Sequence record: NC_027356.1
Origin: Escherichia phage DT57C
DNA: 64,000 bases
Reading direction: 5' to 3' (one strand)
Shown here: piece after piece, positions 7,326-60,104 of the stretch
How the letters are laid out: each line of letters begins with the position of its first letter
Position numbering within the stretch: position 1 is the stretch's first letter
The notes under the pieces: model-generated
Database searches by the model: none
The model's input: only the letters and a program-made list of their open reading frames with translations
What the model was told of the DNA's origin: nothing
Translations under genes and position numbers: made by a program

Positions 7326-8030
7326 ATGGCTGGTTCTCGCAGAAAGAAACATATCCATGAAATCCCGGATGAAGTCTTTAAAAAGGTTATAGAGCATCTG
7401 GAGAACGGTGGTACTAAGAAAGCAGCATGTGAAATGCTCGGCGTATCATCCAATCCGACTATGGAAAGGATGATAGAAGAGTGGCAAGATCGCCAAATTC
7501 AAGTTGCCGAGATGAAGAAAAAGAAACGTGGCACACTCATTGAAGGCATCGAGTTAGCTAACGTTATTGAACAGTATTTATCTGGTGATTCTTTTGAAGA
7601 GATTGCCGATCGTAATTACCGCTCTGTAGCAATGGTTAAATCTGTTCTGGAACGATATGGTGCTCTACTTCGTTTAAACGATATTGTAGACCCGTTGAAT
7701 CCACCAATTATTCCTGATGATGCTGTAGCAGAAGAATTTGAAGTAGGTGAGCTAGTTTGGGTTCCTGGATACCAGTGTATCGGTGAAATCAAAAAAGCAA
7801 TGGATAATCCTGTTGGTTGTTACCGTGTATGGCTTCTATCAGAAGGCAAACAACAGAACGTTCATTATATGAATTACGAGCTGGCTTCTGTTAAACATCT
7901 GGAAAAGCTAGGGGTTGACGTAAAATCTCTGGGGTATAAATGGTCCCGGGAAGAAGTTATCACACTGATTAACGAAGCTGTTAAGGCTGCCTTGAAACTT
8001 GATAAAGAAAAAGGAAAACGCCGTGAGTAA
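7326..8030 (+). CDS. hypothetical protein with N-terminal helix-turn-helix-like segment
   Basis: 234 aa; GTKKAACEMLGVSSNPTMERMI resembles an HTH. Confidence 0.55.
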   Translation: MAGSRRKKHIHEIPDEVFKKVIEHLENGGTKKAACEMLGVSSNPTMERMIEEWQDRQIQVAEMKKKKRGTLIEGIELANVIEQYLSGDSFEEIADRNYRSVAMVKSVLERYGALLRLNDIVDPLNPPIIPDDAVAEEFEVGELVWVPGYQCIGEIKKAMDNPVGCYRVWLLSEGKQQNVHYMNYELASVKHLEKLGVDVKSLGYKWSREEVITLINEAVKAALKLDKEKGKRRE

Positions 8031-8274
8031 ACTAACTGATTTGCTTAAAGATGGGGAAGTAAAAACACTATATCGTAGAAGCTGGGATAACGATAATAAC
8101 GGCTTAGTGTTACTAACTTTAGATGCTGACTCGGATGTAGTTACTCAACATACTTGGGTAGCCGGTAACTATCCATATAGTGAGATTGTTTCATTAACAG
8201 TATGCGAAGCTGTTGCAGACGATTGGGAGATTGCCAGCATTGATGATATGCTCGCTGTTGGCCTGGTGGAGTAA
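8023..8274 (+). CDS. hypothetical protein
   Basis: probable GTG start overlapping the upstream stop; RBS AAGGAAAA; track ORF opens at 7999. Confidence 0.4.
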   Translation: MSKLTDLLKDGEVKTLYRRSWDNDNNGLVLLTLDADSDVVTQHTWVAGNYPYSEIVSLTVCEAVADDWEIASIDDMLAVGLVE

Positions 8275-8291: not shown

Positions 8292-8320
8292 TTGCTTAAT
8301 CCTACAATTCTTGATATAAT
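8292..8320 (+). promoter_or_regulatory. T5-type sigma70 early promoter
   Basis: TTGCTT, 17 bp, TATAAT. Confidence 0.6.
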
Positions 8321-8377: not shown

Positions 8378-8788
8378 ATGACTACTCCAACTCAGTGGAC
8401 TGATGAACTGTTCGAAAAAATGTCTTCCGAATACGTTGCTCGTATGGAGCAATTCCCAGAGGATGAACGTCCGAGTGTTAGCATGGAAATTGTTAGTGAA
8501 ATTGCCCAGGAAAATGGTGTAACTCCGAACGGTTTTCGTATGAAGCTGACTAAAGCAGGTTTGTATATTAAGAAAGCTGCTGGCTCTGCTTCTAAATCTA
8601 GTGCATCTACTGGAGAAAAAGCTTCCGGTGGTTCTCGTACCTCCAAAGCCCAGGCTCATGCCGACCTTCGTTCAGCGTTCTCTGATGCTGGCTTAGCACC
8701 AGATTTTCTGGATGATGCAATTATCGACAAACTGACCGGTAAAGCGGCTGCTCATCTGGCAGAAGCAATCCGAGCTATCACTAAGTAA
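8378..8788 (+). CDS. abundant small protein with KL(T/R)K-G module; possible DNA-binding protein
   Basis: 136 aa; host-like high-expression codon usage (ctg, cgt, ggt, gaa); module EIAQENGVTPNGFRMKLTKAG shared with 11674..12441 and 59336..59752. Confidence 0.55.
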   Translation: MTTPTQWTDELFEKMSSEYVARMEQFPEDERPSVSMEIVSEIAQENGVTPNGFRMKLTKAGLYIKKAAGSASKSSASTGEKASGGSRTSKAQAHADLRSAFSDAGLAPDFLDDAIIDKLTGKAAAHLAEAIRAITK

Positions 8789-8802
8789 TAGGGAGATTAT
8801 AC

Positions 8803-9090
8803 ATGAATAAACAAGAAATTATCTCCGCATGTGAAGCCCATAATGAGTTCTACCTTCATTATGAGAAACTACGCCAAAAGGGTACTACATACCTTCAGGG
8901 TACTATGGATTTTTCTGATAAGTACCTAAGTAAACGTTTTGCTCAGGAGCGTATCCGTCAACCAAAAGATGACGAAATTCTAGTGTTTAGTCGCACTAAT
9001 GACAGCTTCCGATTTATTCCTGTTGCGAAAGTTCGTCGCATTACGAGCCTTCAGTCAGAGTTAGATCGTGCTTCTCCAGTAGGCCGATAA
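8803..9090 (+). CDS. hypothetical protein (95 aa)
   Basis: ORF with RBS GGGAGA. Confidence 0.45.
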   Translation: MNKQEIISACEAHNEFYLHYEKLRQKGTTYLQGTMDFSDKYLSKRFAQERIRQPKDDEILVFSRTNDSFRFIPVAKVRRITSLQSELDRASPVGR

Positions 9091-9140
9091 GAAACCAATT
9101 AGCCCCTATATGGGGCTTTTTGTGTATTTGAGAAACGTAA

Positions 9141-9449
9141 ATGAGCGATCAGGTAAACCAAAACTATGAAGGACACGTTGATGATCAGTCAATCCTTCTA
9201 TGGGAAAAAGAAGGGGAACAAGTAAGATTGACAGTATCTGAATTTCGTGGGAATCTATACATGGGAATTAGGTATTGGCTCCAGGATATTACTGGAGAAT
9301 GGTTTCCAACGAAATCCGGCTTCTCTTTTCCGTACACTCTAGAAACTACTTCGCAGCTATTCTATGCTTTTACGCAAATCCTTAGTGAATCTGAGGTTTT
9401 ACATGAAGTACAGAAACGAGCTGAAGAACTCAAAGCCAAGAATGCCTAG
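9141..9449 (+). CDS. hypothetical protein (102 aa)
   Basis: ORF bounded by terminators. Confidence 0.45.
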   Translation: MSDQVNQNYEGHVDDQSILLWEKEGEQVRLTVSEFRGNLYMGIRYWLQDITGEWFPTKSGFSFPYTLETTSQLFYAFTQILSESEVLHEVQKRAEELKAKNA

Positions 9450-9465
9450 TTCTTGGCTTTTTCTT
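9435..9465 (+). terminator. rho-independent terminator
   Basis: stem GCCAAGAA/TTCTTGGC followed by TTTTT. Confidence 0.6.
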
Positions 9466-9476
9466 TATAAATGTAT

Positions 9477-9505
9477 TTGCTTTCAACTCAGTTTTGATAT
9501 ATAAT
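9477..9505 (+). promoter_or_regulatory. T5-type sigma70 early promoter
   Basis: TTGCTT, 17 bp, TATAAT. Confidence 0.65.
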
Positions 9506-9519
9506 ATTTATATAAATTA

Positions 9520-9735
9520 ATGAGAGGATCAATCATGGCAATGACAGTAACACTTCCCAAGATTCAAGCAAAACTTAATCTGCTTTCCACAGCACGCATT
9601 AATTATCAAGATAACATAGGCACAGTAAATCAAAAGGCGTACAAAGATGCGTTTCTGAAAGAATCTGCTGATTTGATGGATATGGTTACACAATATAATA
9701 AAGAACTCAAGATGGAAATCGCCGATGATGAATAA
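9520..9735 (+). CDS. hypothetical protein (71 aa)
   Basis: ORF overlapping the ligase A start. Confidence 0.4.
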   Translation: MRGSIMAMTVTLPKIQAKLNLLSTARINYQDNIGTVNQKAYKDAFLKESADLMDMVTQYNKELKMEIADDE

Positions 9736-10699
9736 TGTAAAAGGCTTTATTAAGCGTTGTCAAGAAGCATATTATCAAGGCATGTCTTTAATCTCTGATG
9801 AAGAATATGATCGCCTAGTAAAACGCTTCCCGTTAGAGGAAGAGATCGGGCCTAAGGGTGATATTCCACATCTGTACCGTATGTATTCTTTACAGAAAGT
9901 TTATTATAATCGTGGAGATAAACCCCCATTTAACCCATTAGGTCAAGTAGAAACTGATAAGTTAGATGGTTGTGCAATTTCCTTATTATATATTAATGGC
10001 GAATTTGTTCAAGCATTAACTCGTGGTAACGGTATTCTAGGTAATGATGTCACAAGCAACGTAAGATTGCTGAACATCCCTAAAAAGATTTCTCAAAAAG
10101 TACCTACTCAAATCACTGGTGAAGTTCTAATTACAAAAGAAGTAGAAAATAAACGTAACTTTGCCTCTGGTGCTATTAACCTCAAAGATAGTGATGATTT
10201 CGTACAGCGTATCGGGGAAGGTGGTTTAATCTTCGTTGCATACGGTATCCAGTGTTCTGCTGAATCTGTAGGTATTACAGAAGCGTATTTAAAAGATATG
10301 CTTTGGCTAGAGAATGAGAACTTCTTAACAGTTGTTAATGTACGTTCCTTCTTTAAATGGATTCCAACGGACGGTAAAGTTGTTCGTATTAATGATAACA
10401 ACAAATTCTTCCGTGAAGGCTGGACTAATAAATTTCCTCGCGGTGCATTTGCTATTAAAGAGGATGAAGAAGGTGAGACTACAACTCTTACTAAAGTTGA
10501 ATGGAATGTAGGGGCTTCTGGTAAAGTAACTCCAGTCGGTTATTTTGAACCAGTAATTATTGATGATGCTACAATTGTTAAAGCGACTCTTAATAACGTT
10601 GATTATATTAACTCTCTCGATCTAGAGATCGGTTGCCAGATTCGAGTGATTCGTGCTGGTGGTGTAATCCCGTGCATAGTAGAGCGAGTTTACGATTAA
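9725..10699 (+). CDS. NAD-dependent DNA ligase, subunit A (adenylation domain)
   Basis: 324 aa; KxDG adenylation motif (DKLDGCA) and OB-fold region; stops before the Zn/HhH/BRCT half. Confidence 0.85.
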   Translation: MMNNVKGFIKRCQEAYYQGMSLISDEEYDRLVKRFPLEEEIGPKGDIPHLYRMYSLQKVYYNRGDKPPFNPLGQVETDKLDGCAISLLYINGEFVQALTRGNGILGNDVTSNVRLLNIPKKISQKVPTQITGEVLITKEVENKRNFASGAINLKDSDDFVQRIGEGGLIFVAYGIQCSAESVGITEAYLKDMLWLENENFLTVVNVRSFFKWIPTDGKVVRINDNNKFFREGWTNKFPRGAFAIKEDEEGETTTLTKVEWNVGASGKVTPVGYFEPVIIDDATIVKATLNNVDYINSLDLEIGCQIRVIRAGGVIPCIVERVYD

Positions 10700-10749
10700 T
10701 ACATAACCCTTTGCTACCCCTCTACCATATCGGAATTATAAAGTGGTTA

Positions 10750-10778
10750 TTGACATTTTCGCCGCTTAGGTATATACT
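10750..10778 (+). promoter_or_regulatory. sigma70 promoter inside the ligase intergenic region
   Basis: TTGACA, 17 bp, TATACT. Confidence 0.55.
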
Positions 10779-10842
10779 ATTATCATTCAGTTGAGGGATA
10801 GAAAGTTATGGCGAGGGTAAGCAAAGTTAGTTAAAATTGTAG

Positions 10843-10871
10843 TTGCTAAATGCTTAAATACTTGCTATAAT
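10843..10871 (+). promoter_or_regulatory. T5-type sigma70 promoter upstream of ligase subunit B
   Basis: TTGCTA, 17 bp, TATAAT. Confidence 0.6.
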
Positions 10872-10901
10872 ATTTATATAAATTGATAAGGAAGAAATTT
10901 G

Positions 10902-11681
10902 ATGAAAATCGAAATTCCAACACAATGTCCCTCTTGTGGTTCTAAGCTAGATCTTGTCAACGGACAATTATTCTGTCGTAATAAGTCCAACTGTCCAGCG
11001 CAATCAAGTAAGTTAATTGAGAACTTCTGTTCAAAAATGAAGTTAAAGGGCTTTGGCCCGAAAACTATTGAGAAGCTGGAGCTGACGAAGATTTCAGAAC
11101 TATTTTACCTAACCGAAGAAGATTTGGTTAGAGCCGTGGGTAGCAAGGTTGCCGCTAAGTTAATTAGCGAATTAAATACTAAAGTTCGCGGAGACATTGA
11201 CTTTGGTTCAGTTCTCGGTTCTTTAGGAATCCCTCTAATTGGAGAGGTTGCAGCAAAGAAATTATCCCAAAATTGCACTAGCTTCCACGATGTGAAGGCT
11301 GACGGCAAGGCTGGAGAAAACTATAAAGCCTGGCTAAATTCCCCACAAGGCAAGGATGTTATCGAATTACCGTGGAAATTCTCAAATGGTATTAAAGGTG
11401 CTAAAGCTGACATCATCATTACAGATGAATTAGTTGCCCCGCCAAATGGAATCACGGTGTGTATTACCGGATCTTTGCAAGATTTTGCAAATCGAACGGA
11501 TGCAACAAACTATCTAGAAGGTCTAGGGTATACTGTTAAAAAATCAGTTACCAAAGACGTTAAATACCTCATCTGTGAGGATGAATCTAAGCGTTCTTCC
11601 TCATCTTATAAGAAAGCCGAAACGAATGGGATAGAAATCCTGTCGATTAAAGAACTATTGGAGAAAAATAATAATGTCTAA
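10902..11681 (+). CDS. NAD-dependent DNA ligase, subunit B (Zn-finger, HhH, BRCT)
   Basis: CPSCGS...C..KSNCPAQ zinc finger; HhH-like GFGPKT; C-terminal BRCT-like region; ATG at 10902. Confidence 0.85.
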   Translation: MKIEIPTQCPSCGSKLDLVNGQLFCRNKSNCPAQSSKLIENFCSKMKLKGFGPKTIEKLELTKISELFYLTEEDLVRAVGSKVAAKLISELNTKVRGDIDFGSVLGSLGIPLIGEVAAKKLSQNCTSFHDVKADGKAGENYKAWLNSPQGKDVIELPWKFSNGIKGAKADIIITDELVAPPNGITVCITGSLQDFANRTDATNYLEGLGYTVKKSVTKDVKYLICEDESKRSSSSYKKAETNGIEILSIKELLEKNNNV

Positions 11682-12441
11682 ACTGAACTGGAACGTAGAA
11701 GGTGTAACCGAGTCTCTGAAAGCAAAAGCCACTGCTCTGGGTGTTGCTGTAATCTCTCAAGAACAAGTAGCTGCTATCGCTGCTGAACTGGCTGCTGAAA
11801 CTGGCAAAGACGTTACCGCTCGCTCTGTTGGCTCTAAGCTGCGTAAAGAAGGTTTCGAAGTACAGAAAGCTAACGAAGTACAGAAATCCCCGTGGACTCC
11901 TGAGCAGGAAGCTGAACTGGTTGATTTCCTGAACTCTCATGCTGGTCAGTATACTTATGCTGAAATCGCTGCTGCTGTAGCTGGTGGTCAGTTCGGTGCT
12001 AAACAGGTACAGGGTAAGATCCTGAGTCTGGAAATGACCGCCTCTGTTAAACCAACTGAAAAAGCTGCTGCTGTTCGTTCCTTCACTCCGGATGAAGAAA
12101 CTGATTTTGTTAATCAGGTTGTTGCTGGTGCTACTATTGAAGCTATCGCTGCCCACTTCGGTCGCAATATTAAGCAGATCCGTGGTAAAGCTCTGAGTCT
12201 GCTTCGTGAAGGTCGTATCGCCGCTATGCCGGTACAGGAAACTTCAAGTGCTAAAACTCGTGAAGATCTGCTAGAAGGTCTGGATCTGGCTAACATGACT
12301 GTTGCTGAGATCGCTGAGAAAACTGGTAAGTCTGAGCGCGGTGTTAAATCTATGCTGTCTCGTCGTGGTCTGGTTGCTAAGGACTATGATGGTGCCGCTA
12401 AGCGTGCTAAACTGGATGCAAAAGCTGCGGCTGCTGAATAA
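11674..12441 (+). CDS. D5-like repeat protein; putative DNA-binding replication protein
   Basis: 255 aa with four copies of an approx. 40-aa module; strongly host-like codon usage; sits between ligase and helicase-primase-polymerase, where T5 D5 lies (from memory). Confidence 0.55.
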   Translation: MSKLNWNVEGVTESLKAKATALGVAVISQEQVAAIAAELAAETGKDVTARSVGSKLRKEGFEVQKANEVQKSPWTPEQEAELVDFLNSHAGQYTYAEIAAAVAGGQFGAKQVQGKILSLEMTASVKPTEKAAAVRSFTPDEETDFVNQVVAGATIEAIAAHFGRNIKQIRGKALSLLREGRIAAMPVQETSSAKTREDLLEGLDLANMTVAEIAEKTGKSERGVKSMLSRRGLVAKDYDGAAKRAKLDAKAAAAE

Positions 12442-12460
12442 TCTGGTAAATTAAACCTAA

Positions 12461-12490
12461 GGGGAGGGGGCTATGCTCCTTCCCCTTTTT
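12461..12490 (+). terminator. rho-independent terminator
   Basis: GGGGAGGG/CCTTCCCC stem plus TTTTT. Confidence 0.55.
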
Positions 12491-12523: not shown

Positions 12524-13996
12524 ATGACCTTGTTTAACGTGCAAGCTGTAGTGTTGAAGATGCTTCTAGCTTCCGAACAGAAGCAAATAGCATTGGAAAC
12601 ATTCTCAAAACTGCATAAAGATCATTTTAATGACGCTTTCTCCTCAATTTACCAAGCCGTCCAGAATTATTATAAAAAGTATAACACAATGCCGTCCATT
12701 GACGCACTGATGCTTGAGGCTAATAGGAACGCCCGCCTTTCTCAAGCTCTAGTCGTTTTAGCTAACACTCAAATTCCAGAAGTTAGCATGGAACAGGCAC
12801 TTGAAGTCCTAGAGGCCGAGTATACACAGGATTTATTCCTGAAGCTTCTAGAAACAGACGTGCTTCAAGATTTAACAATGCTGGATCAGGGAGAAATTCT
12901 TAACCGAGTTGCCTCCCTTCACTTAAAATTAGAAGAGAAAGTAACGAATACTGGAAAAGTATTCAACGCAGATAACATGCGTATTTTCCAGAGAGAAGAA
13001 GATACCAAACTGAACTTAATCGCTCTTGGTATTTGTAATGAGTTCGACGCTCAAATTGGTTTAGCTCGCACAGAAACGTTACTGCTTGGTGGTTGGCGTG
13101 GTACTGGTAAATCCATTATCTGTTCAAACATACAGGTTCAGCAATATTTGAATGGAGATATTGCTCCATACTTCTCAATTGAGATGAAAGAACATGAAGT
13201 ATTTAGACGTAATCTAGCTATGTTAGCTGGTGTATCAGCACTAGCAATGCGTAATAATACTCTAGAAGGTGCAGCTCTGTTGAGATTAGCCAGAACTAGA
13301 GCTAGGATGTTTAACGGTGGTGAAGAGCTTTTCGATAACTTCGTTAAACAGTATACAATGGCTAAGATGTGTGATTTCTACGATATGGAAAGTAAGCTAA
13401 TAGAAGGGTATGAGCTACATACTCCTATGATTATTGTTTATGATCCTGAGCTGTCTATTACAACAGTTGACGTAGAATTAAATAAATTAGTTGCTAGATA
13501 TGGGGATAAAGTTACAGTAGCTTTACTAGACTATATTAACCAAACCCGACTTCCAGACTCTAAAACCATTGATATGTATGACTGGAAAGAACAGATGGTT
13601 GTTAGCTCGTCTTTCAAATCTATCTGCCAGAAACATAACGTGGCTGGTGTAGCTCCTTACCAGATCGATCAAGATGGTAGAACACGTATGTCGAAGGGGA
13701 TTCTTGATTCCGCAGACATGGCTGCTAATCTTAATGCTGCAAAAGCTGATAATGGTCAAGGTGCTATTATGTTTGACTTCGTTAAGACTCGGTCTTCTGA
13801 TAGCGTGAAGTTTATGCCTAAAATGAACTGGGAAACCCTGCGGATGGATAACACTACCAACCTAGCAATGGAAGATATATCTCAAATGGAAGCTGAGTTC
13901 GTTATCCCTATTGAGAAGGATAAGCCGGCTCAATCTAAACGTGCTAAGAAAGACAAAGCTGAAAATTCAACAGGTGAACAGGCCAGCGATATATGA
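12524..13996 (+). CDS. replicative DNA helicase (DnaB-like)
   Basis: Walker A GWRGTGKS, SxEM-like FSIEM, Walker B LLDYIN; track ORF opens at 12473 inside the terminator hairpin, so start moved to the ATG at 12524 (start uncertain). Confidence 0.75.
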   Translation: MTLFNVQAVVLKMLLASEQKQIALETFSKLHKDHFNDAFSSIYQAVQNYYKKYNTMPSIDALMLEANRNARLSQALVVLANTQIPEVSMEQALEVLEAEYTQDLFLKLLETDVLQDLTMLDQGEILNRVASLHLKLEEKVTNTGKVFNADNMRIFQREEDTKLNLIALGICNEFDAQIGLARTETLLLGGWRGTGKSIICSNIQVQQYLNGDIAPYFSIEMKEHEVFRRNLAMLAGVSALAMRNNTLEGAALLRLARTRARMFNGGEELFDNFVKQYTMAKMCDFYDMESKLIEGYELHTPMIIVYDPELSITTVDVELNKLVARYGDKVTVALLDYINQTRLPDSKTIDMYDWKEQMVVSSSFKSICQKHNVAGVAPYQIDQDGRTRMSKGILDSADMAANLNAAKADNGQGAIMFDFVKTRSSDSVKFMPKMNWETLRMDNTTNLAMEDISQMEAEFVIPIEKDKPAQSKRAKKDKAENSTGEQASDI

Positions 13997-19572: not shown

Positions 19573-19857
19573 ATGCTTACAGAGCCTGATGCTCACCAAT
19601 TATTGGTCGGTTCCTCATTCATTTTGAATGAATCAACAATAGTTGATAATCCAAATAAATTGTCTAATAGACAACTGGCAGAATATCTAGGAATTTTAAG
19701 TCTACGAAATTATGCCGAATACAAGTTTACAAACGATCCTAGTTTGGACATACAATATGTTCCAGTATGGATACCACGTTTAGTAATCGACACTAACCCA
19801 CTAATCGCAATTAACAAATCGAAATTAATCTTTAAAGAGGAAATAAAATATGGCTAA
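19573..19857 (+). CDS. hypothetical protein (94 aa)
   Basis: ORF only; start uncertain. Confidence 0.3.
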   Translation: MLTEPDAHQLLVGSSFILNESTIVDNPNKLSNRQLAEYLGILSLRNYAEYKFTNDPSLDIQYVPVWIPRLVIDTNPLIAINKSKLIFKEEIKYG

Positions 19858-20623
19858 GTCTTGGGGCGAAACTACTGGCGGTTCTAACGATAAAATCGAA
19901 TTCCTGAAGTTCAACAACGGTATCACTCGTGTTCGTATCGTTTCTGGTGTTCTTCCACGTTATGTCTATTGGCTGACTAATAAAGAGGGTGGCGTAGCTC
20001 CTTTCGAATGTCTCCGTTTTAACCGTGACAAAGAGAGTTTTGTTCGTGGTAAAGCTGATCCGGTTCATGAGATGGGCTTCTTTGAGAAAGAGCTGGATAA
20101 AGATGGTAATCGTGTTCCACTGAAACCGAAGAAAAACTATATCGCTTTTGTTATCGACCGTTCTGATAACAAACTGAAAGTAATGGAAGTCAAAGCTACT
20201 ATTCTGAAAGGCATCCAGTCTATCATGAAGCAGTTGAATCTGGCAACCCCGTTTGATATTGATATTTCTATCGAGAAAAAAGGCAAGGGTTTCGATACTG
20301 AGTATGATGTACAGCAGATTGCTGCTATGCAGTTCCAGATTAAGCTGCAAGATCCTAACAGTGCAGAATCTAAGCAATATGCTGCGGATGTAGATCTGAT
20401 TGGTGAAGCTATGTGTGATGAAGATGGCGACATCATTAAGTTCGAAAAAGTTCCTTCCCTGGAACAAACCTATCCGGTTCCTACCTATGAAGAGCAGAAA
20501 GAAGCAATTCAAGCCTTCATGGAAGGTCGTGAGAATAAAGATGATGATGCCAAATCTGGTAACAGCAATGCTGGTTCCCAGAAAGGTATTGACCAAGAAG
20601 CTGCAAGCGATCTGGACGACTAA
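19850..20623 (+). CDS. D11-like protein; possible ssDNA-binding protein
   Basis: 257 aa; host-like high-expression codon usage; acidic C-terminal tail (...SDLDD) typical of SSBs; function inferred. Confidence 0.5.
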   Translation: MAKSWGETTGGSNDKIEFLKFNNGITRVRIVSGVLPRYVYWLTNKEGGVAPFECLRFNRDKESFVRGKADPVHEMGFFEKELDKDGNRVPLKPKKNYIAFVIDRSDNKLKVMEVKATILKGIQSIMKQLNLATPFDIDISIEKKGKGFDTEYDVQQIAAMQFQIKLQDPNSAESKQYAADVDLIGEAMCDEDGDIIKFEKVPSLEQTYPVPTYEEQKEAIQAFMEGRENKDDDAKSGNSNAGSQKGIDQEAASDLDD

Positions 20624-46173: not shown

Positions 46174-47550
46174 TTAAGATGCAGCGTAAGCACCGGATAC
46201 AACGCCGTTCTCGAAGTAACGTTGCAGGTTAACACGCTGAGTAACGTAGTATGCGTCACGCTGTTTGCCAGCTTGGCGCTCACGTTCAACAGTAACAGCA
46301 CGCTGACGTGGCATCACGAAGTTATCTTTATAAACAATAACTGCGAACTCTTTACCAGCTGCTTTAGCTGGGAAGTACTCAGAAACTACAACCGGCAGAC
46401 CATAAATACGACCAACCTGACCCTGCAGTTTAACAGCATCATTACCAACCTGAGCAACATCCTGCCATTCTTCATCTTCCAGCAGATCGTAGTAAGCATC
46501 CATAGATACAATCAGTACCAGTTTGGACAGTTTCAGACCATGACGGCCCAGCTTACGACGCAGTTTAGAGATAGTTTTAGCAGTTACCAGAACAGAACCA
46601 TCAGCTTTAGCTTCGGTAGTAACTTTAGCACTATCTTCACTAGCAAGAGTCAGCAGACCTTTCGGCTTACCAGAACCATCACCAGTCATGAAGGCTTCTT
46701 CAATAGAAACAGCGTGTGCTTCAATTAGACGCTTACGAAGCAGTGGCAGCAGGGAGAAGATTGCATCTTCTTCAGTTTCATCAGTAATGAAGGATTTAGC
46801 AGCCAGTTTGTAAGTACTGAAGTGGATTTCTGTAAGAGCGCCTGTAACTTCGCTACCAGTAGTATTGTCACTACCATAAGCAGAAGCAGCAACCCAAGTA
46901 GCTCTACCAGCATCCGGTTCAACCAACATAGTAAGAATCTTACTGGACATCGGCAGTTCTTCGAACAGTGCGCCAACTACTAGCTCTTTCTGCAGGTCAC
47001 GGATAATACGCTGAGAGAAAATAGTTTCATAGCTTTCACTAGAAACTTCTACAGAAGAGGACTGATTCACTGCTTTCAGGTGTTTTTGACCGTGTTCGGT
47101 TTCGAATACGCCTTTTTCCATTACATAGGACAACAGAACCAGTTTTTCTACTTCGTCTTCAAAGGTTTCCTGAGTACCGTACAGTGCTTTAGCAACACTA
47201 TCACCAACGAAGGAACGACCTTCACGAGCTGTTAGCAGAGACTTAATTTCGTCCTGAAGACCAACAATAGTTTCCTGTTGTTTTTCTACAGTTTGTGCAA
47301 ACAGTTCTGCACTCTTCTTAGATTTCTCATCCAGAGACTTAACCAGTTCCAGAGCTTGTTCCAGTTTCTGACGATCTTCGCCAACTGCTTTAGAAACCAG
47401 GGCATTCATACGAGCCAGTTCTTTTTCTTCCTGCTCTTTACGCATACGTTCAGCTTCCTGAGCTTTCTGAGCAGCGGTCAGACCTTCCAGAGATTTAGCC
47501 AGATCACCCAGACCAAGTTCTTCTTTCAGCTTATTAATATCAATAGTCAT
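46174..47550 (-). CDS. major capsid protein (pb8-like, HK97 fold)
   Basis: 458 aa, the size of T5 pb8; high-expression codon usage; downstream of protease; strong terminator after it. Confidence 0.85.
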   Translation of the reverse strand: MTIDINKLKEELGLGDLAKSLEGLTAAQKAQEAERMRKEQEEKELARMNALVSKAVGEDRQKLEQALELVKSLDEKSKKSAELFAQTVEKQQETIVGLQDEIKSLLTAREGRSFVGDSVAKALYGTQETFEDEVEKLVLLSYVMEKGVFETEHGQKHLKAVNQSSSVEVSSESYETIFSQRIIRDLQKELVVGALFEELPMSSKILTMLVEPDAGRATWVAASAYGSDNTTGSEVTGALTEIHFSTYKLAAKSFITDETEEDAIFSLLPLLRKRLIEAHAVSIEEAFMTGDGSGKPKGLLTLASEDSAKVTTEAKADGSVLVTAKTISKLRRKLGRHGLKLSKLVLIVSMDAYYDLLEDEEWQDVAQVGNDAVKLQGQVGRIYGLPVVVSEYFPAKAAGKEFAVIVYKDNFVMPRQRAVTVERERQAGKQRDAYYVTQRVNLQRYFENGVVSGAYAAS

Positions 47551-57318: not shown

Positions 57319-58983
57319 TTACGCGAAAAATTTGCCGTTTTTAAAGTCGATTAACGTGCGCTGCCCGTTTGCATATGTAATTACATGCGTTTGCGTCCAG
57401 CTTGATGCGCCGACGTTGTAGCCCATATCGAGGCTGCCCGATACGCCAGCAGTATATACGCCGCCGTAAATGCTGGCGGTATGGGTGTGCCCCGTGTTTA
57501 ATTTGCCCAACTTTTTAAATTGCTTCGGATTGCCGCGGCTCCCGTTGATGCCGTTGTGACCGTGTACGCCGCACTCAATGCCTGCAATCTTGAATGATTG
57601 ATCAGTCGTTAGGAATATGGCGTTAAACTCACAGCCTGCAACCTTGCGCAGCGCATAATCCAGCACGTTGAAAGTATCGTCATTTTCTGCAATAGCTCCA
57701 TAGATCGCGGCGTTGAGGCGGTGATATAGCTCTGCGTTTGCTGGATCGTCTTTAATGTTAGCGTTGCGATCATCCAGCCAACGGGATAACGCCAGATCGT
57801 GGTTTGACTCAACAATGATTGTTTGCGAGAAATCGCGCTCCATTGATTCCAATACACGCCCCGTGTCGATAAGATCATCTAAAACCTTATCACGTCCGGC
57901 GGCGTACTGTTTTGCTAGGAATACGCCAGATGCGCGATTGTGGTGGTTGCGTGATGTAAAGTCATGCACATCATGCACGAACTGATATTTAGGTTTAAGA
58001 ATATCAAGCAAACTATTTTCGCCCGCCCATGACGCTTCAGCACACGCCTTATCTAATTTTTCAGCGTGCACGTCGCCATACTGTAAACCTAAAACATGCC
58101 CCGATGTTTCATAACATCCGGCGGGAGTGGCGCAAATATTCAAATCATAAAAAACGCCGGTTTCATCCATCGTCTCAAGCTGGCGAACAAAAAATGCCCC
58201 GTCCTCGTCAAACTCGACAATCAGCGCGCCAAAGTTATGTAACGCTTCGGCCTTTTGCCCTGCTTTCTGCTGAATGTAGTTTTTTAGCGTTGCCGCTCCC
58301 GTTGAGTACATACGGCGCACTACTTCACCTTTGAGCGCTGGAACGCTTTCTGCGGTGATTTTAGCTGCTCCAATTGCCAAACCTTCAAGATCAAGCGCTG
58401 TTGCAGTCTCAGCGAATCCAGAAAGCGGGTAGTCTGCCGTTGGCAAAACATTAATCTCAGCCATGAAAGCAAAGCGGCGACTATTTAAAAACACGTTTTT
58501 ATTACAGATATATTTATCAAAAGCGGAATCATATTTGATCCCGTCCGCACCTTCTCCATTCTGGAATCCTTTTTTGTTATAAATGAACTTGCTAACCAGC
58601 AAATCAGCGCCGATAAATTGGGCGTAATGTTCAAGTGAGGCTAAAAAGTTTTTATGCGGGAACGTGTTGTTCTGGATTGATGTTATAATGAAGCGTTTGC
58701 CCTGCTTTACTTCCCACTGTTCAACCGTGCTAGAAATAATTCCCGCCGCCTCTGGGCGCTCGTCGTTTTTAACGGCTTTTGATGCTTTCGCCTCTTTTGG
58801 TTTCGCTGGTTTGTTTGCTTCCAGCCAATCACAAATTGCGGTCGAATGTTTTGCCGTATCGTACACCGCTTTTGATATATCGTCGCAGACTTCCAATCTA
58901 GTAGCGCGCAGACGTTTACCGTAAAAATTAAAATCAGCGGCCAGCTTCAGGATAACGGTTTGTTTTTCTGCGGAAATAACCAT
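57319..58983 (-). CDS. A1: A1-like pre-early protein (metallophosphatase-fold nuclease-like)
   Basis: 554 aa (T5 A1 is about 556 aa, memory); metallophosphoesterase-like motifs GDVHAE, GHNG, GHTH. Confidence 0.65.
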   Translation of the reverse strand: MVISAEKQTVILKLAADFNFYGKRLRATRLEVCDDISKAVYDTAKHSTAICDWLEANKPAKPKEAKASKAVKNDERPEAAGIISSTVEQWEVKQGKRFIITSIQNNTFPHKNFLASLEHYAQFIGADLLVSKFIYNKKGFQNGEGADGIKYDSAFDKYICNKNVFLNSRRFAFMAEINVLPTADYPLSGFAETATALDLEGLAIGAAKITAESVPALKGEVVRRMYSTGAATLKNYIQQKAGQKAEALHNFGALIVEFDEDGAFFVRQLETMDETGVFYDLNICATPAGCYETSGHVLGLQYGDVHAEKLDKACAEASWAGENSLLDILKPKYQFVHDVHDFTSRNHHNRASGVFLAKQYAAGRDKVLDDLIDTGRVLESMERDFSQTIIVESNHDLALSRWLDDRNANIKDDPANAELYHRLNAAIYGAIAENDDTFNVLDYALRKVAGCEFNAIFLTTDQSFKIAGIECGVHGHNGINGSRGNPKQFKKLGKLNTGHTHTASIYGGVYTAGVSGSLDMGYNVGASSWTQTHVITYANGQRTLIDFKNGKFFA

Positions 58984-59335: not shown

Positions 59336-59752
59336 TTATTCACCTGCGGATTGTTTTACTTCATCTGCTACGCCTAGTAATTGCGCTACGGCGTCCAGCG
59401 TTTCTAATTTTGCGCTTTCCAGACTTGCCAGATCGTCGGCGTCTTTGATAATGCCGGAATCAATGGCATGTTTAGCAATAACGCGCACATAATGCGCCTT
59501 GCGGATTGAACTACCGCCGCCAACTTTGCGCGGTTTATCGCTTTTCTGATACGCTTTTGCGCTGGTCAATTTTGAGCGAACAGACACAGGGGAAGTAGCG
59601 CCCACTGTTTTGGCGATCTCTTTCAGGCCGTCGCTGTTTGCGAACTCTAAACCGTTTTCATTGATTAATTGCTGATACATAGAAACGGCTTTTTGGGTAT
59701 TTTCTTCATTCCATGCAAATTTTGCGGATTTTTCGGTTTTAACGTTAGTCAT
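59336..59752 (-). CDS. pre-early protein with KL(T/R)K-G module; possible A2-like DNA-binding protein
   Basis: 138 aa; module LKEIAKTVGATSPVSVRSKLTSAKAYQK related to repeats of 11674..12441 and 8378..8788. Confidence 0.45.
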   Translation of the reverse strand: MTNVKTEKSAKFAWNEENTQKAVSMYQQLINENGLEFANSDGLKEIAKTVGATSPVSVRSKLTSAKAYQKSDKPRKVGGGSSIRKAHYVRVIAKHAIDSGIIKDADDLASLESAKLETLDAVAQLLGVADEVKQSAGE

Positions 59753-59852: not shown

Positions 59853-60104
59853 CTATGCTACAGCTTCCAATTTTTCGTTACGTTGAACAACTTTTACAAC
59901 GTCGCCAGATTTAACGCGAACACTAAAAACGGTTTTTCCGTTGTTGCTACGTTCCGTTTCTGCATATACTGCATCAATTACATCGAACGGCATGAGCGCC
60001 GCGCCTTTGATGCGTTCGGCCTTTCCGGTTGCCTCGTCTGTTTTAGTAACGAAAGGGATGAAAACGGATTGACCAATTTTTGGCGCGGTGATAGCGTTTT
60101 TCAT
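59853..60104 (-). CDS. pre-early hypothetical protein (83 aa)
   Basis: ORF with conserved leader/RBS; promoter-like TTGACG, 17 bp, TAAAAT upstream on the minus strand near 60305-60335. Confidence 0.45.
   Translation of the reverse strand: MKNAITAPKIGQSVFIPFVTKTDEATGKAERIKGAALMPFDVIDAVYAETERSNNGKTVFSVRVKSGDVVKVVQRNEKLEAVA

Follow-up and report, generated by a model that had tools for sequence, protein, structure and literature searches.

D3, D5 and A2 of a T5-like phage as probable ancient paralogues built from one helix-turn-helix module, repeated four times in D5

Introduction

The closest described systems for the genes considered here are two DNA-binding proteins of phage T5. D5 (T5.118) is, going by the title of the paper devoted to it, a DNA-binding protein that affects replication and late gene expression, and A2 is an essential, dimeric double-stranded DNA-binding protein which associates with A1 and on which second-step transfer depends. 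Only two T5 pre-early genes are essential, A2 among them, and how A2 drives this transfer has been called unknown. For a third gene, D3, we found no published function in the searchable literature. Here we describe the counterparts of these three genes in a 64,000-nucleotide stretch of Escherichia phage DT57C (NC_027356.1; hereafter the window), where they probably represent ancient paralogues derived from a single helix-turn-helix (HTH) module.

Phage defence has lately brought the same proteins into view. A 2026 preprint on the type IX retron-Kva2 presents D5, a 255-residue HTH protein that binds DNA, as this retron's trigger, and describes it merely as having "a helix-turn-helix motif". One escape phage in that study carried the D5 changes G53D, W74*, V149I and G232D together with D2 E76Q, and another carried E30Q and G85D in D3. 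In addition, mass spectrometry of phiR2-01 virions found D5 to be the sole non-structural protein among the major species.

Much of the relationship discussed here is essentially already known: D3, D5 and A2 have names and annotations in a phage that has been studied well, and most of their relationship is already covered by curated families, with PHROG 1725 grouping D3 with A2. Our own addition is to read D5 as a tandem array of four modules of a kind that A2 and D3 have singly, a modest gain at the level of annotation which reveals no new kind of system. In the searchable literature we found neither the four-fold make-up of D5 from the A2/D3 module nor the paralogy of the three genes stated.

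Results and discussion

Three annotated genes of a T5-like phage

Between positions 8000 and 12600 the window is 99.2% identical to Escherichia phage DT571/2, a T5-like phage (Demerecviridae, Tequintavirus; record NC_047749), and between 57000 and 61000 the identity is 100%. The three open reading frames (ORFs), which a preliminary description of the window had picked out from the sequence alone, were confirmed to the nucleotide (Table 1), and they coincide with the coding sequences annotated as D3, D5 and A2 in NC_047749. That description had placed the 255-residue member where D5 of T5 maps and had suggested that the pre-early member may correspond to A2, and both identities hold. For D5, they are given by the annotation, by a match to PHROG 323 ("transcriptional regulator, D5-like"; E 1.7e-71 over residues 1-253) and by its place, in the window as in NC_047749, between ligB and the DnaB-like helicase D6, which is also where T5 D5 lies. 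The T5 protein is equal in length, and its published escape-mutation residues (G53, W74, V149, G232) agree with the numbering of the window protein; the two are orthologues with nothing substantive to separate them. For A2, the annotation is joined by 100% identity to DT571/2 A2 and by the neighbouring A1 (57319-58983, same strand), which adjoins A2 within the terminal repeat. The corresponding region of DT571/2 is present at two places in NC_047749, and the second-step-transfer protein of T5 is likewise a pre-early product encoded in the terminal repeat beside A1.

D3 and A2 both match PHROG 1725 ("DNA binding protein", the family of T5 A2 and D3) over the full length of the profile (E 5.8e-50 at profile positions 1-127 of 129, and E 7.8e-52 at positions 1-128 of 129, respectively); the same PHROG profile search gave no match of D5 to this family. 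Precomputed annotation assigns PF26822.1 to all A2 homologues, to three D3 homologues and to five D5 homologues. Our copy of Pfam, which lacks the PF26822 model, returned no match for A2 at E <= 1, and no mention of PF26822 was found in the searchable literature.

One module, six copies

The module pattern occurs once in D3 (EIAQENGVTPNGFRMKLTKAG), once in A2 (EIAKTVGATSPVSVRSKLTSAK) and four times in D5, as IAAELAAETGKDVTARSVGSKLRKEG, EIAAAVAGGQFGAKQVQGKILSLE, AIAAHFGRNIKQIRGKALSLLREG and EIAEKTGKSERGVKSMLSRRG in repeats 1 to 4 (R1-R4); the N-terminal modules of D3 and A2 are abbreviated D3N and A2N. In an alignment of all six, the likeness reaches past the HTH into helix 1 (K-x-W-T/N-x-E-x-T). 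Pairwise alignment, one of the checks put forward in the preliminary description, speaks with two voices: BLASTP is marginal for D3-A2 (E 0.002) and D3-D5 (E 0.003) and finds no match between A2 and D5, and as these values are too weak to decide, we used profile comparisons, where the likeness does become significant.

When the D5 profile was aligned to itself, two shifted alignments of ~150 residues emerged (E 3.7e-10 and 8.1e-10), which is the mark of three repeats sliding over three, and D5 therefore comprises four repeats. Comparison of single modules with hhalign links R2 to R3 (E 2.6e-9), D3N to A2N (2.7e-7), A2N to R1, its nearest D5 repeat (3.1e-9), and D3N to R4, its own nearest D5 repeat (3.1e-6); the other pairs range from 1e-5 to 8e-3, and all six modules are joined in a network. 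With alignments widened by distant relatives from a D3+A2 profile search, D3 and A2 align with 99.0% probability (E 3.6e-18) over 103 columns that take in the linker and the first C-terminal helix, A2 and D5 with 96.1% (E 3.2e-9), and D3 and D5 with 89.9% (E 1.7e-6). No repeat of the module period was found at the DNA level, so the duplications within D5 must be old and visible only in the protein.

We also ran hidden Markov models (HMMs) of D5, D3 and A2 against ~2,700 ORFs, namely 286 from the window, 234 from the rest of DT571/2 and 2,227 from 80 environmental viral loci. Below E 1e-3 they recovered only their own orthologues and each other, and because they match only family genes, the relation is a specific one and not a generic HTH likeness. 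A single-sequence phmmer search with window A2 likewise recovered D3-like ORFs in nine environmental loci at E < 1e-5. Could the resemblance nonetheless be no more than what HTH motifs generally share, or reflect convergence of short basic helices, with no common descent and no real family? HTH motifs are very common, D5 weakly matches more than 15 Pfam HTH families, pairwise BLASTP spans E 0.002 to 10, and the pairs R2-D3N, R4-A2N and R2-R4 reach only 5-13% hhalign probability. We regard this as very unlikely all the same, since HMM cross-matches stay within the family even with D2 and other HTH proteins in the set searched, the D3-A2 alignment runs on beyond the module, the likeness among modules extends into helix 1, and the precomputed PF26822 annotation falls on members of all three families.

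Common descent of D3, D5 and A2 is thus the reading we prefer. The proposal that the three genes share a module, with four tandem copies in D5, is borne out by the pattern in all six units and by significant profile statistics; that they form a paralogous family is upheld by the profile-profile comparisons, by cross-matches confined to these genes and by predicted secondary structures that are alike. Profile-profile comparison and structure prediction had themselves been recommended as checks, and the two agree.

A predicted three-helix fold

The author of the preliminary description did not recognise the module as a named domain, and this has to be amended. In AlphaFold2 models, the four units of D5 and the one unit of A2 each consist of three helices with a tight turn between the second and third, and the module is, on these predictions, a three-helix HTH of homeodomain-like form; named counterparts are given by Sigma70_r4_2 on repeat 4, by PHROG 1725 and by the PF26822 annotation. 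In each unit "EIA" lies in helix 2, the basic R/K-x-K-L stretch lies in helix 3 past a short Gly-containing turn, and a Trp or Phe opens helix 1.

Among Pfam models, Sigma70_r4_2 (PF08281) exceeds its gathering cut-off on D5 repeat 4 (29.7 bits vs 25.7, residues 204-230). Repeats 1-3 draw sub-threshold matches to HTH_23, HTH_28, Myb and others, including HTH_23 on repeat 3 (E 1.7e-4, residues 151-184), and an NCBIfam search returned nothing useful for the family. Against PDB sequences, the D5 profile picks out a chain of the engrailed homeodomain (E 0.0013); the match of the D3+A2 profile to syntaxin (E 0.03) looks spurious. The tandem order of D5 recalls Myb repeats, but the three spaced tryptophans of Myb are absent from D5, which has one conserved aromatic per module (W6, W74, F137) at the start of helix 1, and we rejected D5 as a Myb/SANT repeat protein (PF00249, 18.0 bits vs a cut-off of 24.4, on repeat 2). 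The tandem layout of D5 also recalls bipartite DNA-binding domains of the Tc3 and paired type. No second phage protein with such a row of four HTH copies is known to us. When the A2 model was compared with BFVD using Foldseek, the matches were A2 orthologues of Vibrio T5-like phages and three further proteins of 119-148 amino acids with 15-22% identity, which may be D3-like but are not confirmed as such.

Architecture of D5, D3 and A2

D5 is modelled with a mean predicted local distance difference test score (pLDDT) of 94.2, as four three-helix units followed by a C-terminal helix. Its composition is rich in Ala and Gly (17.6% Ala). In an alignment of 64 homologues the invariant residues are R50, K55, L56 and R57 in repeat 1, Q113, G114, K115 and L117 in repeat 2, G171 and K172 in repeat 3, and R231 in repeat 4; they are for the most part basic residues of helix 3 (R50, K55, R57, K115, K172, R231), and the helix 3 segments carry net charges of +1 to +5. 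In the same alignment, conservation reaches at least 90% at three of the residues changed in the retron escape phage, G53, W74 and G232.

D3 and A2 follow a simpler plan, and in D3 a single HTH module is followed by a basic linker rich in Gly and Ser and then by a helical C-terminal domain. A2 is modelled with a pLDDT of 86.4, rising above 90 within the HTH domain and falling low at residues 76-79 in the linker PRKVGGGSSIRK (PRKVGGGSS); the linker has a net charge of +5 and the C-terminal domain one of -5. The two proteins are only ~24% identical. We considered whether their C-terminal domains might be a further copy of the module and rejected this (E 0.004 to 0.4). The escape site G85 of D3 falls within a conserved linker motif, GG-x-R-x-S-K. 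The strongest conservation in the D3-like clade is not in the HTH but in a C-terminal motif, (I/L)-x-K-L-T-G-K-A-A, which corresponds to residues 117-124 of window D3 and in which K, T, G, K, A and A are at least 90% conserved across 39 diverse sequences; A2 lacks the nearly invariant KLTGKAA of this clade. For structural work, the resulting domain map is one of four beads in D5, and of one bead plus a C-terminal domain in A2 and D3.

Codon usage and abundance

We scored codon usage with the codon adaptation index (CAI; Sharp-Li weights, which represent E. coli genes of high expression) and with the fraction of optimal codons, the weights and the optimal-codon set both following the E. coli literature. 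D5 has the highest CAI of 53 ORFs (0.70, z 3.6, against a mean of 0.30), D3 ranks fourth (0.53) and A2 sixth (0.43); the putative major capsid gene (46174-47550) lies below D5 at 0.63. The optimal-codon fraction gives a similar order among 48 ORFs, with D5 first at 0.83 (again above the putative capsid gene), D3 third at 0.69 and A2 fifth at 0.62, against a background of 0.50. The claim that D3 and D5 use codons typical of highly expressed E. coli genes is therefore substantiated by both measures, and A2 too stands above background. D5 uses CTG for 17 of its 19 Leu codons (16% in the background), CGT or CGC for all 12 Arg codons and GGT or GGC for all 19 Gly codons, and a single codon of 256 is rare. 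The G+C content at third codon positions (GC3) of D5 is 0.33 and is not raised, which argues for codon selection and against foreign base composition. As the most biased codon usage among the window ORFs, that of D5 suggests that the protein is made in very large amounts.

A recent acquisition of these genes from enterobacteria, in place of selection for high expression, would also yield host-like codons, and the G+C contents of D5 (0.48) and D3 (0.46) do exceed the ~0.37-0.42 of many window genes. This origin seems to us extremely unlikely: the extra G+C stems from the Ala/Gly-rich composition, whereas GC3 stays at the value given above and the bias towards CTG, CGT, GGT, GCT, GTT and ACT is a signature of translational selection; the putative capsid gene is biased alike; D3 and D5 belong to the syntenic core of distant T5-like viruses, marine and environmental; and the few matches that bear bacterial names are 98-100% identical to phage proteins.

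Host-optimal codons are found in two further places. The ORF at 19850-20623 (+), of 257 amino acids and with no Pfam match, has a CAI of 0.55 (rank 3), and an 83-residue DUF7177 protein encoded just upstream of A2 (59853-60104, -) has one of 0.50 (rank 5).

A proposed role in DNA handling

What might proteins of this design do? The notion of an abundant nucleic-acid-binding family fits the published DNA binding of D5 and A2 and the abundance of D5 in phiR2-01 virions. In each module, helix 3 is likely to be the helix that contacts DNA. We posit that D5 forms a coat on double-stranded DNA, with sequence mattering little, in which every module holds one segment of the duplex; multivalent binding of this kind could block early promoters and bring order to replicating DNA, and such a coat would explain the joint effects on replication, early shut-off and late expression. 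In A2, the C-terminal domain may mediate dimerisation, and A2 together with A1 would keep a grip on the entering DNA, allowing second-step transfer to go ahead. D3 may dimerise as A2 does, each dimer presenting two HTH units; judged from its homology and its position, it most likely serves the replication module as an accessory protein that is dimeric and binds DNA.

Or does D5 act chiefly on host RNA polymerase, through a fourth repeat that resembles region 4 of sigma-70, rather than by coating DNA? This is the main rival for D5. The score of repeat 4 above the Sigma70_r4_2 gathering threshold is mirrored by the same precomputed match on most D5 homologues, a sigma-70 extracytoplasmic function (ECF) model weakly matches residues 200-230, the effect of D5 on late gene expression is stated in the title of the paper cited above, and Klimuk et al. 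still describe the switching between T5 gene classes as unknown. We nevertheless consider action through RNA polymerase unlikely. Only ~27 residues of the HTH (region 4.2) are matched, D5 has no sigma region 2, and the NCBIfam sigma-70 model reaches 15.2 bits against a cut-off of 42.9, for which reasons we rejected D5 as a sigma factor of this family; the accessible text of Klimuk et al. reports gpT5.026 in RNA polymerase from infected cells and does not name D5 there; the extreme codon bias and the abundance in mass spectrometry fit stoichiometric DNA binding better than a catalytic regulator; and D5 is both predicted and reported to bind DNA.

DNA coating by D5 can be taken one step further, to a speculation that we hold to be doubtful: the three proteins could form one phage "DNA-handling" set, in which A2 would grip the first-step DNA, D5 would coat the replicating genome in a chromatin-like manner, and D3 would partner D5 via the shared module. 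A D3-D5 partnership, if true, would explain how mutations in D3 only (E30Q, G85D) escape a retron that is triggered by D5, and were the set real, the A2/D3/D5 module would be a general target sensed by bacterial immunity. The shared module provides residues to mutate, namely the basic positions of helix 3, and makes the D3-D5 link in retron escape testable. The T5 DRT4 trigger "ORF55" was also checked, and it is unrelated to the D3/D5/A2 family.

Taken whole, the explanation that we favour – ancient paralogues D3, D5 and A2 from one three-helix HTH module, with the roles proposed above – is in our judgement probable, and several points weigh against it. Besides the marginal pairwise BLASTP values, D3 and A2 show hardly any likeness when only their C-terminal halves are compared (E 0.06). 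Foldseek found no significant match in the PDB (best E 0.15 for D5 and 0.86 for A2), its weak top matches all being HTH arrays: the Timeless DNA-binding domain, the Tc3 and Mos1 transposases, the CDC5L Myb repeats and sigma factors, with bipartite domains of the Tc3 and paired type among them. The HTH assignment rests on predicted secondary structure together with Pfam and sequence matches, and predicted template modelling (pTM) scores of 0.56 and 0.48 for the D5 and A2 models mean that the relative placement of units is not predicted. Finally, D5 is charge-neutral overall (isoelectric point 6.8), which is unusual in a DNA-coating protein, and the codon measures depend on the literature weights and codon set used.

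Distribution across T5-like viruses

The family of D3 and A2 is much larger than word-based searches showed: a D3+A2 profile searched against 1.84 billion representatives returned 353 clusters at E <= 1e-3. The newly recovered representatives, 148 in number, form two clades, 106 D3-like and 42 A2-like, and IMG/VR holds more than 576 loci with D3-like proteins; tblastn with a distant D3-like protein gave no match among isolated phages. The order D2-D3-PC4-like-ligA-ligB-D5-DnaB is conserved in the 80 environmental T5-like loci examined, and D3 and D5 are therefore core replication-module genes of T5-like viruses.

In two A2-like proteins (P0246 and P0251), a pair of tandem modules precedes the C-terminal domain, which means that the module does duplicate, and these proteins stand naturally midway between layouts of one and of four modules. 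A D3-like protein with an N-terminal region of ~170 amino acids (P0301) could be a real fusion or an artefact of gene calling. Near-identical D5, D3 and A2 sequences are filed under Enterococcus faecalis, Citrobacter freundii and Brucella melitensis (P0020, P0038, P0151, P0181, P0201, P0228), some of them on contigs of ~113-115 kb; such entries have the look of T5-like phage genomes or of contaminated bacterial assemblies.

Within DT571/2 itself, the family HMMs found no fourth member of the module family among the window ORFs and the rest of the genome. D2 (7326-8030, +) has a look-alike stretch, SFEEIADRNYRSVAMVKSVLERYG, but the family HMMs give it E 0.17-0.6 and it was not counted; it is a "helicase" in RefSeq, yet comprises 234 amino acids with just a weak HTH_28 match (residues 79-113, E 3.9e-4). 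Outside the window, T5.032 ("putative protein 2C"; 13560-13829, -, in locus L082) weakly matches the HMMs of D5 repeat 3 (E 0.0037) and of D5 (E 0.038), and may be another small HTH protein, with scores too weak to count.

Expression signals and neighbouring genes

Table 1. Positions of the genes, their modules and candidate expression signals in the window.
Feature	Positions	Strand	Details
Putative T5-type early promoter before D3	8292..8320	+	TTGCTT, 17 nucleotides, TATAAT (8315-8320), A-rich upstream stretch; read from sequence
D3	8378..8788	+	ORF of 136 amino acids; annotated D3 in NC_047749
D3 N-terminal HTH module, residues 4-68	8387..8581	+	hhalign vs A2 module 2.7e-7, vs D5 repeat 4 3.1e-6
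Terminator-like hairpin closing the D3 + T5.114 unit	9101..9117	+	6-bp stem, 5 GC pairs, then T run
Two promoter-like sites in the ligA-ligB spacer	10750..10871	+	TTGACA-17-TATACT (10750); TTGCTA-17-TG-TATAAT (10843)
D5	11674..12441	+	ORF of 255 amino acids, 27 kDa; annotated D5 in NC_047749
D5 repeat 1, residues 3-66	11680..11871	+	Helices 11-22, 29-43, 49-58
D5 repeat 2, residues 71-126	11884..12051	+	Helices 76-88, 95-101, 109-118
D5 repeat 3, residues 134-186	12073..12231	+	Helices 139-150, 155-162, 166-178
D5 repeat 4, residues 190-240	12241..12393	+	Helices (205-207), 210-217, 221-231; most canonical HTH
D5 C-terminal Lys/Ala-rich helix, residues 240-254	12391..12435	+	AlphaFold2 model; net charge +2
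Strong terminator-like hairpin directly after D5	12459..12487	+	13-bp stem, 8 GC pairs, then T run
A2 basic linker and helical C-terminal domain (residues 85-135)	59348..59536	-	AlphaFold2 model
A2 N-terminal HTH module, residues 11-72	59537..59722	-	Helices 16-33, 41-50, 55-64
A2, right-terminal-repeat copy	59336..59752	-	ORF of 138 amino acids, 14.8 kDa; 100% identical to DT571/2 A2

D3 appears to have a promoter of its own, which our consensus promoter scan passed over because its TTGCTT agrees with only 3/6 positions of TTGACA, and its ribosome-binding site reads AAGGA. The start of D5 at 11674 overlaps the end of ligB at 11681, so that D5 has no intergenic promoter of its own; transcription of the ligB-D5 unit could start from the promoter-like sites between ligA and ligB.

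The NAD-dependent ligase (9725-11681, +) is split into ligA and ligB with a 200-nucleotide spacer between them, in which the two promoter-like sites are strong ones. In environmental relatives (L018-L069), the distance between the starts of the two genes ranges from ~1.0 to 3.0 kb, which suggests variable insertions between the ligase halves. Between D3 and the ligase lies a gene (9141-9449, +) for a protein with a PC4-like single-strand DNA-binding domain (PF02229, E 1.5e-8), kept in 75 of the 80 environmental loci. Upstream of D3, the T5.112 homologue (8023-8274, +) encodes 83 amino acids and is annotated "transcriptional regulator"; it also matches nearly the whole of the Pfam profile Tad2-like (Thoeris anti-defence 2), at a sub-threshold score (E 0.008, 17 vs 25 bits).

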